Positions 1,936 through 44,245 of a stretch of 50,014 nucleotides of DNA are shown here, in pieces. Positions within the stretch are counted from its first letter, which is position 1; each line of letters begins with the position of its first letter. The position numbers and the translations under genes were made by a program. Source of the DNA: a virus (taxonomy: Duplodnaviria > Caudoviricetes); IMG/VR virus record IMGVR_UViG_3300036801_000108, positions 1-50,014 of that record. One strand, written 5' to 3'. A model generated the notes under the pieces. It was not told the DNA's origin, did not search any database, and worked only from the letters and a program-made list of their open reading frames with translations.

Positions 1936-3444
1936 ATGGCCCGCATAATTCGCACAGATCAGTCGAAGCCAGATGATTTTATAAATCAGTGGGAAAGGGA
2001 TCAAATTTATAATGGATTGGATGTATGCATCACCGCCGAATGCCTAGCCGCTCAGCTTCCACAATTCGACACCACCACCCGTGAGACCTATCACTTCTCC
2101 CTCGCGCTCCAAGCACCAGCCCTCGAAATGCGCCTGCGCGGTGTCCGGATCGACCAACAGCGCAAGGCCGAGGTTATCGATGACTTCTACGACAAAATCG
2201 AACGCCTCGAACGCAACCTCGAACGCATTGTCCTCGAAGGCGTGGGGATGTCCGGCTTCAACCCCCGCTCCAACGCCGATCTCCAGGACCTATTCTACAA
2301 CCGCCTTGGCATTCCCGTCATCCGCAAACAAGGACGCCCCACCGTTGACCGCAACGCGCTTGAGAAGATGGAATCCTACACTGTCGCCCGGCCGATTGTC
2401 TCGCACCTGTCCGCGATCCGGGAGCTATCCAAGAAGATTTCGGTACTCAAGACTGAGATCGACCCGGATGGACGAATTCGTACTAGCTACAACATCGCAG
2501 GAACTGACACCGGGCGGTTTAGTTCTAGTTTCTCAGAATTCGGGACTGGTGGCAATCTCCAGAACATTGAAGAAAACCTTCGATCGATCTTTGTGGCCGA
2601 TCCCGGAATGAAATGGGCCAAGTGCGACGCCAAGTCTGGCGAATCCTTCGTCGTTGGCGCTTTGGAATGGAACCTGTTTGATGACCCACGATATTTGGAA
2701 GCATGCGAATCCGGCGATCCTCATACCGCTGTTGCTCGAATCTGTTGGCCACAACTTGCATGGACCGGTAACCTTAAGCGAGATAAAAATCTCGCAGAGT
2801 CACCCTACTACCGACACTACACGTATCGTTTTATGTGCAAGAAGCTCGGACATGGAAGCAACTATGGTGGTAAAGCTGCGACCTTGTCGGCGCAAAGCAA
2901 GCTCCCAATCGAAACGGTCCAAGCCTTCCAGCCCCTCTACTTCCAAGCCTTCCCCGCGCACCTGCTCTGGCAGCAATGGGTCCCGCAACAACTCGCGACC
3001 AAGGGCTACCTAACCTCGCTCGGCGGCCGCAAGCGCTGGTTCTGGGGCAGGAGGACCGAACCGGACACCATCCGCGCGGCCCTCGCGTTCGATCCACAGG
3101 AAACCCTGGCCAAGGTCGTGAACCGGGCCATGCTGCATATCTGGCGCCAGAATTACTGCACCGTTATGCTCCACGACCACGACGCCCTCACCTTCCAATA
3201 CCCCGCACACCTCGAAGACGAAATCATCCCCCGCCTCATGCGTGATCTGATCCAACCTATCCAACTCAAAAACGGACGAATGTTAGCAATCCCATATGAC
3301 TGCAAGGTCGGCTGGAATAAAGGGGAATATGATGCACGATCGAACCCGGATGGGCTCCGCGATTACGAAGCCGGGGACCAAGGGCGCAAGCGGCAGCCGG
3401 AAGTTGGGGTCTTGGATCGAGTCGTTCGTAGAGCATACCGATAA
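1936..3444 (+). CDS. DNA polymerase family A, catalytic subunit
   Basis: ExoIII YNGLD, TDTGRFSS, NLQNI, motif A DAKSGE, motif B KKLGHGSNYG, motif C HDAL. Confidence 0.93.
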   Translation: MARIIRTDQSKPDDFINQWERDQIYNGLDVCITAECLAAQLPQFDTTTRETYHFSLALQAPALEMRLRGVRIDQQRKAEVIDDFYDKIERLERNLERIVLEGVGMSGFNPRSNADLQDLFYNRLGIPVIRKQGRPTVDRNALEKMESYTVARPIVSHLSAIRELSKKISVLKTEIDPDGRIRTSYNIAGTDTGRFSSSFSEFGTGGNLQNIEENLRSIFVADPGMKWAKCDAKSGESFVVGALEWNLFDDPRYLEACESGDPHTAVARICWPQLAWTGNLKRDKNLAESPYYRHYTYRFMCKKLGHGSNYGGKAATLSAQSKLPIETVQAFQPLYFQAFPAHLLWQQWVPQQLATKGYLTSLGGRKRWFWGRRTEPDTIRAALAFDPQETLAKVVNRAMLHIWRQNYCTVMLHDHDALTFQYPAHLEDEIIPRLMRDLIQPIQLKNGRMLAIPYDCKVGWNKGEYDARSNPDGLRDYEAGDQGRKRQPEVGVLDRVVRRAYR

Positions 3445-36289: not shown

Positions 36290-36688
36290 TTACAATCGTC
36301 GTTCGAAGTATGGGGCTGGCGGTCGGTGGTTCAGGGTGGCGAGGATTGCGCCGTTGCGTTCGAGGGTTAGGGGGACGGAGACGGCGGTCGGGGACTTGAG
36401 CGCGATGTTGTAGCGGGGTTTGTAGATGTCGATCATTGCGCGTTCGAGGGTGTTGAGGTCTTCGACTCGGCAGGGCAGGACGTAGACTTGATCGAACAGG
36501 ATTCCTCGGGTCGATGCCGGGAGCCAAGCCGGCACTGACTTCCGCCCCCAATTCGACTTATGGGCCGAGATGCGCGAGAGCATGCGCTTGCTCTGGCCGA
36601 TGTAAACCACAACTCCATCGCGCAGCAGGGCATAGACCCCGGCGGCTAGAATCGGCGTGACCTCGATAAACCCGTCAAGCATCGGCAC
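36290..36688 (-). CDS. GIY-YIG nuclease family protein
   Basis: GVY...VYIGQS..R..H...E...PRYN. Confidence 0.85.
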   Translation of the reverse strand: MPMLDGFIEVTPILAAGVYALLRDGVVVYIGQSKRMLSRISAHKSNWGRKSVPAWLPASTRGILFDQVYVLPCRVEDLNTLERAMIDIYKPRYNIALKSPTAVSVPLTLERNGAILATLNHRPPAPYFERRL

Positions 36689-37977: not shown

Positions 37978-38199
37978 ATGATTAAAGCTGAAACCCTACC
38001 ATATACTGCAATGGTCGATGGTCTTGGTGTTGTCCATATCTATCGTAATGAGAATGGTAGGATTGCGGTTGATATCAATGGCAAGATTGCATGGACATAT
38101 ATGGTTGGGTTAGAGCAGACCTTGTGGTATGTAAATGAGGATATTCGGCGCTGGCGATACGTCAATTCCTTTAGCAAGCCTTGCGGCGAAGCCCTCTAG
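37978..38199 (+). CDS. Early hypothetical protein
   Basis: GGGAG RBS; 73 aa. Confidence 0.65.
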   Translation: MIKAETLPYTAMVDGLGVVHIYRNENGRIAVDINGKIAWTYMVGLEQTLWYVNEDIRRWRYVNSFSKPCGEAL

Positions 38200-38205
38200 C
38201 AGAAG

Positions 38206-38418
38206 GTGATGGTGATGAAACTCCCAAAGGGACTGACTGTGGACACAGTAATTGACGCAGCCAAGCGTCAGATGTTCGGCTTGGACAATCCGGGCTTCTG
38301 TCTTGCTTGTGGCTATGAACAGGATGGTTGTGAGCCCGATGCTATGGGTTATGAATGTGAGGAATGCGGTGAGCCTAAGGTTATGGGTGCTGCCGAATTG
38401 GCTATGTGTCTTGCCTAA
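38206..38418 (+). CDS. Small zinc-finger protein
   Basis: GFCLACG..DGCEPDA...CEECG. Confidence 0.8.
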   Translation: MMVMKLPKGLTVDTVIDAAKRQMFGLDNPGFCLACGYEQDGCEPDAMGYECEECGEPKVMGAAELAMCLA

Positions 38419-38419
38419 A

Positions 38420-38478
38420 GGTCGAAACCCAAGGCTAATCCCTTGGGTCTGCCAGTGATGCTGGTACTGATGATGACC
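38420..38478 (+). ncRNA. Hammerhead ribozyme, type II
   Basis: GGUC-GAAA, stem III CCCAAGG/CCUUGGG, GUC cleavage triplet, stem I UGCCAG/CUGGUA, CUGAUGA-U-GACC; complete catalytic core. Confidence 0.9.
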
Positions 38479-38549
38479 ACTAGGCCGCCCACCTCAACGG
38501 CCTAGCGTGGGCTATCTCCCACGGGCTGTTTGAAACGATGTAAGACTAT

Positions 38550-38683
38550 GGGATTGTATCGGCGGAGGCAGAGTGCTAGTTCGCTCCTAGCATTGCCGCT
38601 ATAGTGTGGAGCGTGCACTATAGATAGGCTAAAGTGATTGGCTAAGAACCAGTTGCTGTGTCTGCCTCCACCCGTGCAATCCC
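38550..38683 (+). ncRNA. Structured RNA domain with a multi-way junction and kissing loops
   Basis: Closing stem 38550-72/38661-83, three internal hairpins, complementary loops CGCUC and GAGCG. Confidence 0.6.
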
Positions 38684-38898
38684 GCACGACCAATATGCCA
38701 CGATCCAAGACCGATGGGGCCTAGGGGCTCTGCCCTTGCCAACGCAATGGTAGCGACTGCCGCGAAGCGTTCACGCCTAGCAATAGTCCAAAGACCACTG
38801 CCGAAGCTCGGCCAACCCTTGCGACCGCCATAACCATCAGTGACTACCTTGGCATATACCCCGGTGGCAATCCCGCCACCACAAAGAGGACTGTAGTT

Positions 38899-39585
38899 AT
38901 GACAGACCTAGCGACTGATGTTGCGGCCGACGCCGCGGTACCCTCCACTGACATCACCTTTGCCCTTAAAAACGGCGCAGGCGAGTTCACGGTCAATACC
39001 TTACGGCTCCCAATCGACGTATACCGCGAAGCCCTCATGCAGGGCCTCAAGGCCATCGCCGAACGCAACATGAGCAAGCTTACCAAAGCTGCATTCCCCG
39101 AGGACAACGCTGACGGCACCAAGCGCAAAGCCGCTATCCGTGCCAAGGCCGAGGCCAACATCGAGGACATGTACTCCGGTAAGACCAAGATCACCGGCCA
39201 GTCTAAGGCCAAAAAGGCCGGTGGGAATAAGGAAGTGGTCGCCGAAGCCATGCGGCTGGCGCGAAACCTCGTCAAGGACGCAATCAAAGCGGCCAAGGGC
39301 AAGATTTCGCACTACAAGGCTTCGGAAATCACCGAGGGCGCCAAGCAGCTTATCGCTGCCGATCCCTCGATCTTGGAGACAGCCAAGGCCAATCTCGAAG
39401 CGCGGGCAGCGACCCCGGTGAAGCTCAACGTCATGAGCGTCATCAAGGCCGATCCCAAGCTGGTGGCCGAGGACGAAGCCAAGAAGGCCAAGGCCAAGGC
39501 GGACAAGCCCCTTAGCGCAAAGCAGGCCGGTAAGGTCGCGCCGAGGGCAAAGGGCTCGAAGCCGCAGCCGCAGGCTAACGCCTAA
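38899..39585 (+). CDS. Lys/Ala-rich basic protein (possible nucleic-acid binder)
   Basis: AGAGGA RBS; 228 aa; strongly biased codons; K/A-rich tail. Confidence 0.8.
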   Translation: MTDLATDVAADAAVPSTDITFALKNGAGEFTVNTLRLPIDVYREALMQGLKAIAERNMSKLTKAAFPEDNADGTKRKAAIRAKAEANIEDMYSGKTKITGQSKAKKAGGNKEVVAEAMRLARNLVKDAIKAAKGKISHYKASEITEGAKQLIAADPSILETAKANLEARAATPVKLNVMSVIKADPKLVAEDEAKKAKAKADKPLSAKQAGKVAPRAKGSKPQPQANA

Positions 39586-39869
39586 CGGAACGTCCATCGT
39601 GACTAAACTAGCCGAGTAATTGGAACCTAGGGTACGCAAGACGGAGCCCCCGCTCCTGATCTACCCTCTGACAACAGCCAAGGATCGGCTAGTTCTCCTT
39701 CCAACACCCATCCAGAGTTAACAGCTTTAGTATGGAATGGGACTAAAAAGCTGATTATGACGACCCAACTCTCCCCCAAGGGCACCCGGCGGTATATCCG
39801 CGCTGGCCCCTTGGGCTTCTTCCAGCAACGATGTGAGCAAGTGCCAGCATTGCTAGGCCATAGGCCCAC

Positions 39870-43416: not shown

Positions 43417-43754
43417 TGGGCACCCTCGACACCGACCCCCCACCTCATGCCGTAACCCTATGGCTCACCGACCACGACATCATCGTCCAACTCCCGATGA
43501 CCGCCGGCGGCATCCCCTACCTGCTCAAGCTCCCGCTCTCCGAAGGCGGCCTCATGCAGGCCCTCGAACTCCTGCGCAAGCGCAAGCACGAGGTCCTATC
43601 CCCATTGGAGGCCCAAGCCCTCTACGAGCCCCCGCGACATCAACCCCAAGTCAAACTCACCAAGGCTCAAGAACGGCTCAATGCCGAGACCACACCCGAG
43701 CAACGGGCCGCGGCTAAGGCATTGATTGAGCGGTTGGGATTGGTGAAGCGATGA
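43413..43754 (+). CDS. Hypothetical protein
   Basis: 113 aa, coupled on both sides. Confidence 0.7.
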   Translation: MMGTLDTDPPPHAVTLWLTDHDIIVQLPMTAGGIPYLLKLPLSEGGLMQALELLRKRKHEVLSPLEAQALYEPPRHQPQVKLTKAQERLNAETTPEQRAAAKALIERLGLVKR

Positions 43755-44245
43755 CCGATCTCTTCCTAATTGCCCACACGGCAGCGGCAGTTAGTCTAGA
43801 AAGACGATTGCTTGAGAAAACAACTAAGCTGGAAAATGGCTGCTGGTATTGTAGCGCTGGCGGTGAAGAAAGTCGTTATGGCACCATCTGGTTTAAGCAC
43901 CAAAATATCGGTAATCATGTTGCGTCATATTTAGTGCATAAAGGTTCAATTCCCAACGGTATGTTAGTCTGTCACACCTGCGATTACAAGCGATGCATTG
44001 CACCAGATCATTTGTTCTTGGGCAGTAACCAAGACAACACAGATGACATGATACGCAAAGGGCGTAAAGATAGGCGGGTTGGTAGTTTGAATACACGGGC
44101 CATTCTTACTGAGGATCAAGTTCGTGAAATCAAATACTTTCTTGAACACGCAGGTATGACACAACAAGCCATTGCCGATTATTTTGGCGTATCTCGGGTT
44201 ATTATCAGTCAAATCAATACAGGCAAGAGGTGGGTGCATGTCTGA
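43751..44245 (+). CDS. HNH homing-type endonuclease with C-terminal HTH
   Basis: GCW, VCHTCD...CIAPDHLFLGS..DN..DM, LTEDQVREI..TQQAIADYFGVS; AT-rich. Confidence 0.9.
   Translation: MTDLFLIAHTAAAVSLERRLLEKTTKLENGCWYCSAGGEESRYGTIWFKHQNIGNHVASYLVHKGSIPNGMLVCHTCDYKRCIAPDHLFLGSNQDNTDDMIRKGRKDRRVGSLNTRAILTEDQVREIKYFLEHAGMTQQAIADYFGVSRVIISQINTGKRWVHV

Follow-up and report, generated by a model that had tools for sequence, protein, structure and literature searches.

A composite structured RNA, probably a cis-acting 5′ leader, precedes a conserved early gene of an epsilon15-like podovirus

Introduction

The window analysed here is the whole 50,014-nucleotide (nt) stretch of IMG/VR record IMGVR_UViG_3300036801_000108, a virus of the Caudoviricetes. 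Its plus strand carries, at 38450-38898, a densely paired region between a hammerhead-like ribozyme and the gene of a basic, conserved protein of 228 amino acids (aa), which we refer to as p228. The question raised by this locus is what such an RNA does. A reading of the letters alone (the sequence-only reading) had proposed a free non-coding RNA (ncRNA) that is released by the ribozyme, contains a kissing-loop domain, and perhaps forms a ribonucleoprotein particle (RNP) with the downstream protein. Comparison with related phages leads us to favour another answer as the probable one: 38450-38898 is the long untranslated, structured, cis-acting 5′ leader of the p228 mRNA, composite in make-up, and p228 is the first conserved gene of a rightward early/replication operon of an epsilon15-like podovirus.

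Results

Conservation and folding of the region upstream of p228

Relatives were collected through p228 itself. An alignment of 20 p228 homologues used as the query retrieved 29 viral loci and 60 metagenome loci; a scan for close relatives with one protein as the query found nothing, and BLAST of the leader region, of two module instances (see below), and of the p228 protein against 50,697 phage records gave no useful match. The p228 start was assigned at 100 loci, and the core motif of the leader is present in 77 of these, which correspond to 49 unique leaders. It was found at all loci where protein identity reached 54% or more and the upstream sequence extended for 250 nt or more. Counts given below for the long-range helix P1/P_A refer to 44 unique leaders, and those for domain 2 and the start site to 40 leaders that were aligned from the core to codon 6.

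The minimum free energy (MFE) of 38450-38898 is -169.3 kcal/mol (z = -3.24), and none of 100 shuffled controls folded as well. Its plus-strand open reading frames (ORFs) are all 39 aa or shorter, in agreement with the sequence-only reading, which had seen no convincing ORF. The pairings listed in that reading are all present, namely the hairpins at 38480-38505, 38506-38523, and 38863-80, the domain-closing and inner helices, and the complementary loops, and the domain-closing helices covary heavily in the 40-44 related leaders. Three helices described below (P2, P_B, and the start-site hairpin) are jointly 94.6% paired in 40 leaders, compared with 76.9% after shuffling. Their covariation score is 0.468, against 0.141 for shuffled alignments (0 of 500 as high) and 0.03-0.095 for slid partners, and they contain 176 doubly changed cells where 43.8 are expected (0 of 500 shuffles). 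Covariation is thus far beyond chance, which bears out a conserved structured element at the RNA level on the plus strand. The strand assignment follows from the hammerhead, the boxA-like element, the Shine-Dalgarno hairpin, and a conserved G.U pair (34 of 40 leaders), all of which lie on this strand.

The RNA was also proposed to be undescribed, and this still holds. Across the whole window, no Rfam family was found at gathering thresholds and nothing relevant at E <= 1; within 38150-39000, the sole meaningful match at E <= 10 is a sub-threshold type II hammerhead. No match at E <= 1 covers the leader in 20 related leaders or the module in 10 module loci, and there is none to the Rfam 15 small ribozymes other than hammerhead (twister, pistol, hatchet, HDV-like, and others). 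The Rfam scans otherwise gave chance-level matches and one tRNA outside the leader, and a full-text literature search with the core string and its sub-strings returned no relevant paper. The p228 leader represents a large new RNA motif that is well supported by covariation and missing from Rfam.

Translation start and domain 2

The features at the 3′ end of the leader are:

38887-94 with 38902-09, plus strand: translation-initiation hairpin, from covariation in 40 leaders
38710-27 with 38816-41, plus strand: P2, the long-range helix of domain 2, from RNAalifold and pair counting in 40 leaders
38693-700 with 38850-57, plus strand: outer helix of domain 2, AUAUGCCA/UGGCAUAU, sub-clade-specific
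38899-39585, plus strand: p228 gene, directly 3′ of the leader

The sequence AAGAGGA at 38884-90 precedes the p228 AUG at 38899 and is predicted to be partly sequestered in a hairpin, in which the Shine-Dalgarno AGG (38887-89) pairs with CCU at 38907-09 (codons 3-4), UGU (38892-94) pairs with ACA (38902-04), and the AUG (38899-901) lies in the loop. Five of the six pairs show compensatory changes. In 11-12 of the 40 leaders AGG/CCU is replaced by ACG/CGU, so that a change in the Shine-Dalgarno sequence is coupled to a Leu-to-Val codon change. No terminator-like site was found on the plus strand from 38450 to the p228 AUG, and this, together with the covarying Shine-Dalgarno/codon hairpin, ties the RNA to the p228 mRNA. 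Leader hairpins that sequester the Shine-Dalgarno sequence are known from autoregulated phage and ribosomal-protein mRNAs.

P2, which includes GAUGG/CCAUC (38713-17 with 38835-39), comprises 16 pairs, 12 of them with compensatory changes, and up to 22 of the 40 sequences have both partners of a pair replaced; a single G.U pair is kept in 34 leaders. Within P2 lie variable hairpins as well as three conserved single strands, GCUCUG, CCAAAGAC, and CCAACCCUU. The helix AUAUGCCA/UGGCAUAU, which had been read as closing domain 2, is present and covaries within a sub-clade (AUAUGCUC/GAGCAUAU in L186, AUUCGCCA/UGGCGAAU in L002), but most leaders lack it and carry GAUUAAGCC instead.

Domain 1, a long-range helix and a hairpin that excludes it

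Domain 1 and the two AAUCCC hairpins comprise the following features:

38550-38572, plus strand: 5′ strand of P1/P_A, with P1 GGGAUUGUA at 38550-58 and P_A GGAGGCAGA at 38564-72
38573-38660, plus strand: hypervariable insert inside P_A with three hairpins and the loops CGCUC (38582-86) and GAGCG (38609-13)
38661-38683, plus strand: 3′ strand of P1/P_A, with P_A UCUGCCUCC at 38661-69, then A, CCC, and G, and P1 UGCAAUCCC at 38675-83
38673-38688, plus strand: hairpin P_B, C-GUGC/AAUCCC/GCAC-G, mutually exclusive with the inner part of P1
38863-38880, plus strand: second AAUCCC hairpin, GGUGGC-AAUCCC-GCCACC, just 5′ of the Shine-Dalgarno sequence, in a sub-clade

Between P1 and P_A, the 5′ strand holds a U.G pair, a C.C mismatch, GG, and a 1x1 mismatch. 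Its consensus is GGGAUUG(C/U)A, followed by U.G or A.G, usually the C.C mismatch, GG, and the 1x1 mismatch, and the 3′ strand ends in CCC-G-UGCAAUCCC. P_A has 8-10 base pairs (bp) whose sequence is different in every lineage while complementarity is kept: this variable part is 86.9% paired, compared with 50.0% when partners are shuffled (sd 1.9, maximum 56.8%, 1000 shuffles). Together, P1 and P_A form about 22 bp, or about two helical turns, and flank an insert in all 44 leaders. The variable position of P1 is U.G in 7 of the 44 and never A.C, and L187 shows an A-U for G-C exchange.

The insert ranges from 34 to 461 nt among relatives and is unalignable. The complementarity of its two loops, on which the kissing-loop proposal was based, is real in the window, where only 1 of 40 shuffles matched it, but complementarity of at least 5 nt recurs in just 2 of 37 related inserts. 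Loop pairing is therefore not a family feature, and we rejected conserved kissing loops.

An invariant part of the leader is P_B. Its 16-mer CGUGCAAUCCCGCACG is identical in 17 of the first 29 loci, whose p228 proteins are only 37-71% identical. Over the 40 leaders P_B is 99% paired; it is invariant in the close set, and compensated variants occur among distant leaders, in L207 (CUGC/GCAG) and in L187 and L206 (a U..A closing pair). In L195, this strand is taken up by another local hairpin instead. Because P_B re-uses the 3′ strand of P1, it can form only with P1 open. P1 is part of the MFE fold of 36 of 37 leaders and P_B of none of the 37, so P_B should form only if something else occupies the 5′ strand of P1 or that strand is gone. 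The second AAUCCC hairpin covaries within its sub-clade (GGGGC/GCCCC, GCCGC/GCGGC, and GUGGGC/GCCCAC). Exact GCAAUCCCGC has two copies in the window, both within the leader; at one mismatch the 10-mer is at chance level in the window apart from these two. The 16-mer was also considered as a repeated operator or promoter, which was rejected as it is present in a single copy in the genome.

Some further observations concern this domain. Inside the P_A insert of one relative (L011:2099-2323) is a small ORF of about 50 aa with the pattern ...LAEF...L.PED..YF..EF.K.G..., and a related small ORF lies 5′ of the hammerhead or the leader in L015, L159, L006, and L165, which suggests that a small gene with the LAEF motif moves around the leader region. 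In the window, P1 is preceded at a distance of 7 nt by a start-stop mini-ORF (AUG UAA, 38538-38543). Many relatives have a stop triplet right next to GGGAUUG (UAGGGAUUG or UAAGGGAUUG), which resembles the way in which the module of other phages adjoins a stop codon; a conserved reading frame was not found.

A hairpin and boxA-like element upstream of P1

Three features precede domain 1:

38480-38505, plus strand: hairpin hp1, 8-bp stem CUAGGCCG/CGGCCUAG, loop with GCCCACC, in MFE and centroid folds
38506-38523, plus strand: hairpin hpB, CGUGGG-CUAUCU-CCCACG, from the fold and relatives
38525-38536, plus strand: boxA-like element GCUGUUUGAAAC, family consensus GCUGUUUGA(C/A)A

The counterparts of hpB in relatives have a CAYUCU-like hexaloop on another stem sequence, lie directly 5′ of the boxA-like element, and stay paired although their stems differ (GCGGCGG/CCGCCG, CGGCG/CGCCG, and GUGG/CCAC). 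The boxA-like element is found in 34 of 43 unique leaders, 25-372 nt before P1, and in these 34 it is always directly 3′ of the covarying hairpin. Of its positions, seven never vary and two hardly do. As it lies ahead of the conserved operon, its place is early in a long transcription unit, and the window has one exact copy. Since GCTGTTTGA(C/A)A matches 9 of the 11 positions of GYTCTTTAANA, the boxA consensus used in the methods of Baniulyte 2017 (PMC5725501), it departs from that consensus, which is gamma-proteobacterial and may not be that of the host. A literature search with boxA-variant strings, which did not extend to supplementary files, returned primer matches only. We rejected the TTGACA within the motif as a promoter -35 box: the best -10 sequences at 16-18 nt match 1-3 of 6 positions, which is background level, and with no -10 at promoter spacing the element is not a sigma-70 -35 box.

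The elements follow one another much as they do in rRNA operon (rrn) leaders, in which boxB, boxA, and boxC are followed by a leader-trailer helix cut by RNase III, as set out in the accessible portion of Warner 2023 (PMC10250234). On this analogy we take loading of Nus factors at the hairpin/boxA-like site as a working inference, which is possible but on balance the less likely case.

The loop of hp1 in the window resembles part of motif X, a block of about 20 nt, GGUG(G/A)CCCACC(G/A)UAUAGGG(C/U), which occurs just 5′ of hpB/boxA in about one third of leaders (L140, L012, L008, L203, L166, L176, L178, L190, and others); 38487-38500 of the window is partly similar to it. Motif X can form a covarying 4-bp hairpin, (G/A)CCC...GGG(C/U). 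A phage RNA polymerase domain, sought on account of motif X, was not found in the large ORFs.

An optional hammerhead ribozyme

One feature lies at the 5′ boundary:

38420-38478, plus strand: type II hammerhead-like ribozyme, from a sub-threshold match to Rfam RF02276 and a descriptor

The RF02276 match (38420-38485) scores 23.3 bits, below the gathering score of 37, with E = 0.036 on 851 nt. The catalytic core is nevertheless complete in the window: CUGAUGA (38467-73), GAAA, a cleavage triplet ending in H, and three stems, with stem II open. Stem I is formed by 38450-55/38461-66 and stem II by 38420-23/38475-78, and the predicted cut falls between C38449 and U38450. In an alignment of six hammerhead copies, the core is invariant and all three stems covary. 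With a strict descriptor, 12 of 60 unique leaders have a hammerhead in the 1 kb that precedes p228, in each case 5′ of the hairpin/boxA-like site. Judged from these sequences, the hammerhead is a genuine accessory of the leader family, and an optional one because only 12 of the 60 have it. Phage and prophage hammerheads that cut polycistronic transcripts are known (Perreault et al. 2011, PMC3088659, accessible portion).

A putative route from the leader to p228 synthesis

These elements can be joined in the following model. In this genome, hammerhead cleavage after C38449 probably generates the 5′ end of the leader. The hairpin/boxA-like site would then load a Nus-type elongation complex of the host, with which the polymerase could cross the long untranslated leader without Rho termination, and which may help to bring together the far-apart strands of P1/P_A, as happens in rRNA leaders. 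The ground state would be P1/P_A, and opening or cutting of this helix, for example by RNase III or a ribosome, would let P_B form. The fold of the leader would set how often the Shine-Dalgarno hairpin opens and hence how much p228 is made, and p228 could possibly feed back on its own leader.

The core unit of the leader recurs in other phages

A scan of viral contigs for the 14-mer GTGCAATCCCGCAC gave at least 118 loci, many of which are expected by chance. Among the matches listed, flanking bases add exactly one hairpin pair in 81 of 110 unique contexts (about 38% expected), and GAUUNCA lies within 80 nt upstream of the 14-mer in 26 of 109 unique matches (about 2 expected). The resulting module is a unit of about 60-85 nt, UGAUUNCA - covarying hairpin - N-GUGC-AAUCCC-GCAC-N′ (in short form, UGAUUNCA - hairpin - GUGCAAUCCCGCAC), and is present in at least 25 other viral contigs. 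Its position is stereotyped: among the matches listed, the upstream ORF stops within 6 nt of the module in 20 of 25, with UGA overlapping it in 14 of 25, and a start codon with a ribosome-binding site follows 3-49 nt after the module. In 28 aligned modules, P_A covaries and the closing pair of P_B is kept in 25, with four pair types. Searching for the CUGC/GCAG variant yielded 112 matches, three of which carry the extended UGAUUCCAG signature; as this variant was sought deliberately, the exchange is not independent evidence. The boxA-like element does not accompany the module (4 of 25, one-mismatch matches).

Two contigs have two 14-mer modules each, with a distance of 387 nt between them in L086 and of about 7 kb in L101, so one phage can carry the module before several genes. 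Several products encoded downstream of modules look, from their signal-peptide-like sequences, like inovirus major coat proteins. From its placement, the most likely role of the module in other phages is to couple or process adjacent cistrons. The presence of an invariant 14-nt module at this place, after a stop codon and before the next ribosome-binding site, points to a means of doing so that is widespread and undescribed.

A broader proposal would make the portable unit UGAUUNCA - hairpin - N-GUGC-AAUCCC-GCAC-N′ (GGGAUUGCA...CGUGCAAUCCCGCACG in the window) a new functional RNA class of unrelated phages, apparently including filamentous ones in view of the coat-like downstream genes. The unit would be either a self-cleaving ribozyme or a two-state switch driven by a factor or the ribosome, which processes or couples adjacent cistrons, and the p228 leader would add to it an antitermination site resembling that of rRNA leaders, one with no need for a phage N protein. 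We regard this proposal as rather unlikely.

Weighing the leader against other explanations

Several observations count against a cis-acting leader as described here. The minus strand folds equally well (z = -3.70), so that energy alone tells neither strand nor function. The G-U pairs had been advanced as a sign of plus-strand structure; this stands for one P2 pair (G.U in 34 of 40) and for the P1 position that is U.G in 7 of 44, but once one column is dropped G.U and A.C are nearly balanced, at 26 to 21. Covariation of P1 is thin, resting on the L187 exchange and the seven U.G leaders, because P1 proper is invariant in sequence, and one P1 position is mismatched in 21 of the 28 modules from other phages; this mismatch fits a pseudoknot of 4-6 bp, in which GAUU/GGGAUU pairs with the P_B loop, as well as it fits a continuous helix. 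The mismatches of the boxA-like element to the gamma-proteobacterial consensus are C-to-G and A-to-G, and transversions at the C-to-G position abolish lambda boxA function (Stagno 2011, PMC3177189, accessible portion). Pairing alone does not explain the extreme conservation of the AAUCCC loop. This conservation points to a partner, and the loop and the conserved single strands of domain 2 would imply a host or phage factor that recognises them.

An explanation that overlaps with the leader rather than excluding it is that P1/P_A is chiefly a processing stem for host RNase III, whose cut removes the insert and upstream RNA and leaves P_B as a protective 5′-terminal hairpin. The helix is of suitable make, with its roughly 22 bp, fixed 1x1 mismatches, and arbitrary insert that sometimes contains an ORF. 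P_B forms only once P1 is opened, and in other phages it lies 3-49 nt before the next start codon. RNase III stems of the T7 early region and of the lambda N leader offer comparisons. Leader-trailer helices of rrn operons are likewise cut by this enzyme (PMC10250234, in part). RNase III, however, needs little sequence specificity, which leaves the invariant 14-mer and loop unexplained, and we consider this a possible but doubtful account of the helix.

The pseudoknot geometry raises a further explanation, that the core (the P1/P_A/P_B module, or P2) is a new class of self-cleaving ribozyme or a riboswitch-like pseudoknot that processes or gates phage polycistronic mRNAs. The GAUU/GGGAUU strand would pair with the AAUCCC loop while P_A stacks on P_B, an arrangement that accommodates the conserved, unpaired-looking CA and CC and the tolerated mismatch. 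Unrelated phages share a unit of about 60 nt in which at least 21 nt never vary, its placement is intercistronic, and in the p228 leader family it lies near hammerheads, whose neighbourhoods are where other small ribozymes were found; the hammerhead itself is dispensable in 48 of 60 leaders. Against this, neither a ribozyme nor a riboswitch family of Rfam matches, and the plain long helix is the thermodynamically favoured form. The conserved single strands of P2 match no known riboswitch class, and although P1 and P_B compete, the domain enclosed by P1 is hypervariable, unlike an aptamer. We therefore hold this explanation to be improbable.

About equally improbable is the stand-alone ncRNA of the sequence-only reading, freed by the hammerhead and acting in trans, either as an RNP with p228 or as a kissing-loop oligomer like the packaging RNA (pRNA) of phi29. 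The hammerhead would define its 5′ end, its domains covary and are conserved, its constant neighbour p228 is a conserved and very basic protein, and the loop complementarity of the window was reached by just 1 of 40 shuffles. What speaks against a free RNA is the lack of a 3′ end signal before p228 and the last helix, which pairs and covaries with coding sequence, joining the Shine-Dalgarno sequence to codons 3-4. Release by the ribozyme finds no support as its defining feature, since just 12 of 60 unique relatives have a hammerhead. The kissing-loop domain varies greatly in length and sequence (complementarity of at least 5 nt in 2 of 37 inserts), neither pRNA nor another ncRNA of Rfam matches, and nothing places the RNA with packaging genes, so the pRNA analogy is not supported either.

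A DNA-level element (inverted repeats of a small mobile element, an origin, or a protein operator) could account for the equally good fold of the minus strand, the conserved inverted repeats around variable cargo, and GTGC-N6-GCAC, which resembles a palindromic operator, but it is very improbable given that P_A differs by lineage yet stays complementary, that the variable P1 position is U.G (7 of 44) and never A.C and the P2 G.U is kept in 34 of 40, that orientation to stop codon, ribosome-binding site, and gene is fixed, and that the Shine-Dalgarno/codon hairpin covaries.

Genome setting and the p228 gene

The viral record is complete at 50,014 bp and flanked by direct terminal repeats. The capsid and portal that it encodes belong to the epsilon15/phiV10 podovirus type (Pfam matches GP7 and Head-tail_con), and the capsid is at most 57% identical to those of cultured phages of Proteobacteria. 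Structural genes occupy the minus strand up to about 36.5 kb. The plus-strand operon starts at about 37.4 kb with small ORFs, followed by the leader region, p228, the coiled-coil protein p247 encoded right after it, and then helicase, nuclease, and polymerase genes. The order p228-p247 is syntenic among relatives; unlike these two, the small ORFs 5′ of the leader are not conserved.

We found 901 p228 homologues at E <= 1e-3; many of them are encoded by complete genomes, about 50 kb in size, that come from metagenomes of soil and freshwater. p228 has no Pfam or PHROG match, and in the Atlas it falls into unnamed viral clusters only. Its AlphaFold model is weak (pLDDT 68, pTM 0.34) and has no Foldseek match at E <= 0.001 in PDB or BFVD.

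The intergenic region between p228 and p247 (39586-39869) is also long, at 284 nt, with blocks that are 84-95% identical in L168, L008/L009, and L150 and a hairpin CCCCAAGGG...CCCUUGGG near 39772-39815. It may be a second conserved RNA element; its folding z-score is only -1.73. No tRNA or transfer-messenger RNA gene was found in the window, and one relative has a tRNA gene (L181:1982-2057, 66 bits) 3′ of the p228 homologue. Two endonuclease-like genes, at 36290-36688 on the minus strand (weak PHROG "endonuclease" match, phrog_1111, E = 3e-06) and at 43751-44245 on the plus strand (a protein with HNH_3 and HTH_3), are possible homing-type mobile genes of the early region. DNA polymerase A is seemingly split into 838-1935 (N-terminal, UDG-like plus 3′-5′ exonuclease) and 1936-3444 (polymerase).

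Comparison with known systems

With the pRNA of phi29 the p228 leader shares the character of a structured phage RNA with complementary loops, but these loops are not conserved (2 of 37), no Rfam pRNA match exists, and the RNA is an early leader fused to an mRNA with no link to packaging genes seen.

The module resembles what we take to be the architecture of Pistol-type ribozymes and H-type pseudoknot riboswitches, a likeness that serves as a lead only. As in those RNAs, a 5-bp hairpin has a 6-nt loop fully complementary to a nearby strand (GGGAUU-AAUCCC), sequence conservation is very high, and the context is phage. The partner strand is 5′ of the hairpin here and can also form a plain helix of 9-10 bp, no cleavage site is known in the module, and Rfam gives no match to Pistol or to any ribozyme or riboswitch.

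Autoregulated leaders that sequester the Shine-Dalgarno sequence offer another comparison: there too it pairs with early codons, the AUG lies in the loop, and leader and coding sequence evolve in compensation. The p228 leader is far larger and more elaborate than typical operators of this kind.

Like the phage hammerheads of Perreault et al. 2011 (PMC3088659), the one upstream of p228 is a type II hammerhead in a phage intergenic region that would cut a polycistronic early transcript before a gene block. The accessible portion of that paper does not describe a conserved RNA 3′ of the ribozyme, and here the ribozyme is optional.

According to the accessible portion of Baniulyte 2017 (PMC5725501), a boxA in a 5′ untranslated region can control translation and Rho termination, and the suhB leader, with a boxA that acts on both downstream, offers a parallel in an mRNA. 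The suhB boxA lies at most about 50 nt from the start codon, whereas about 370 nt and two structured domains separate the boxA-like element from the p228 start codon in the window, and this element does not fully match the consensus.

A similar layout is that of rrn leaders (boxB-boxA-boxC and a leader-trailer helix) and of lambda nut sites. The differences are that the boxA-like element matches only 9 of 11 positions, with one critical C changed to G, that the insert is a short hypervariable RNA instead of rRNA, and that no N-like protein was recognised. In common are a hairpin directly followed by a boxA-like sequence, then leader helices, then a long-range helix whose strands flank a long insert, within an RNA that is long and untranslated and would need protection from Rho. 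With its hairpin and boxA-like element, long-range helix, and sequestered ribosome-binding site, the p228 leader is a test case for how such a layout may protect and fold a long untranslated leader.

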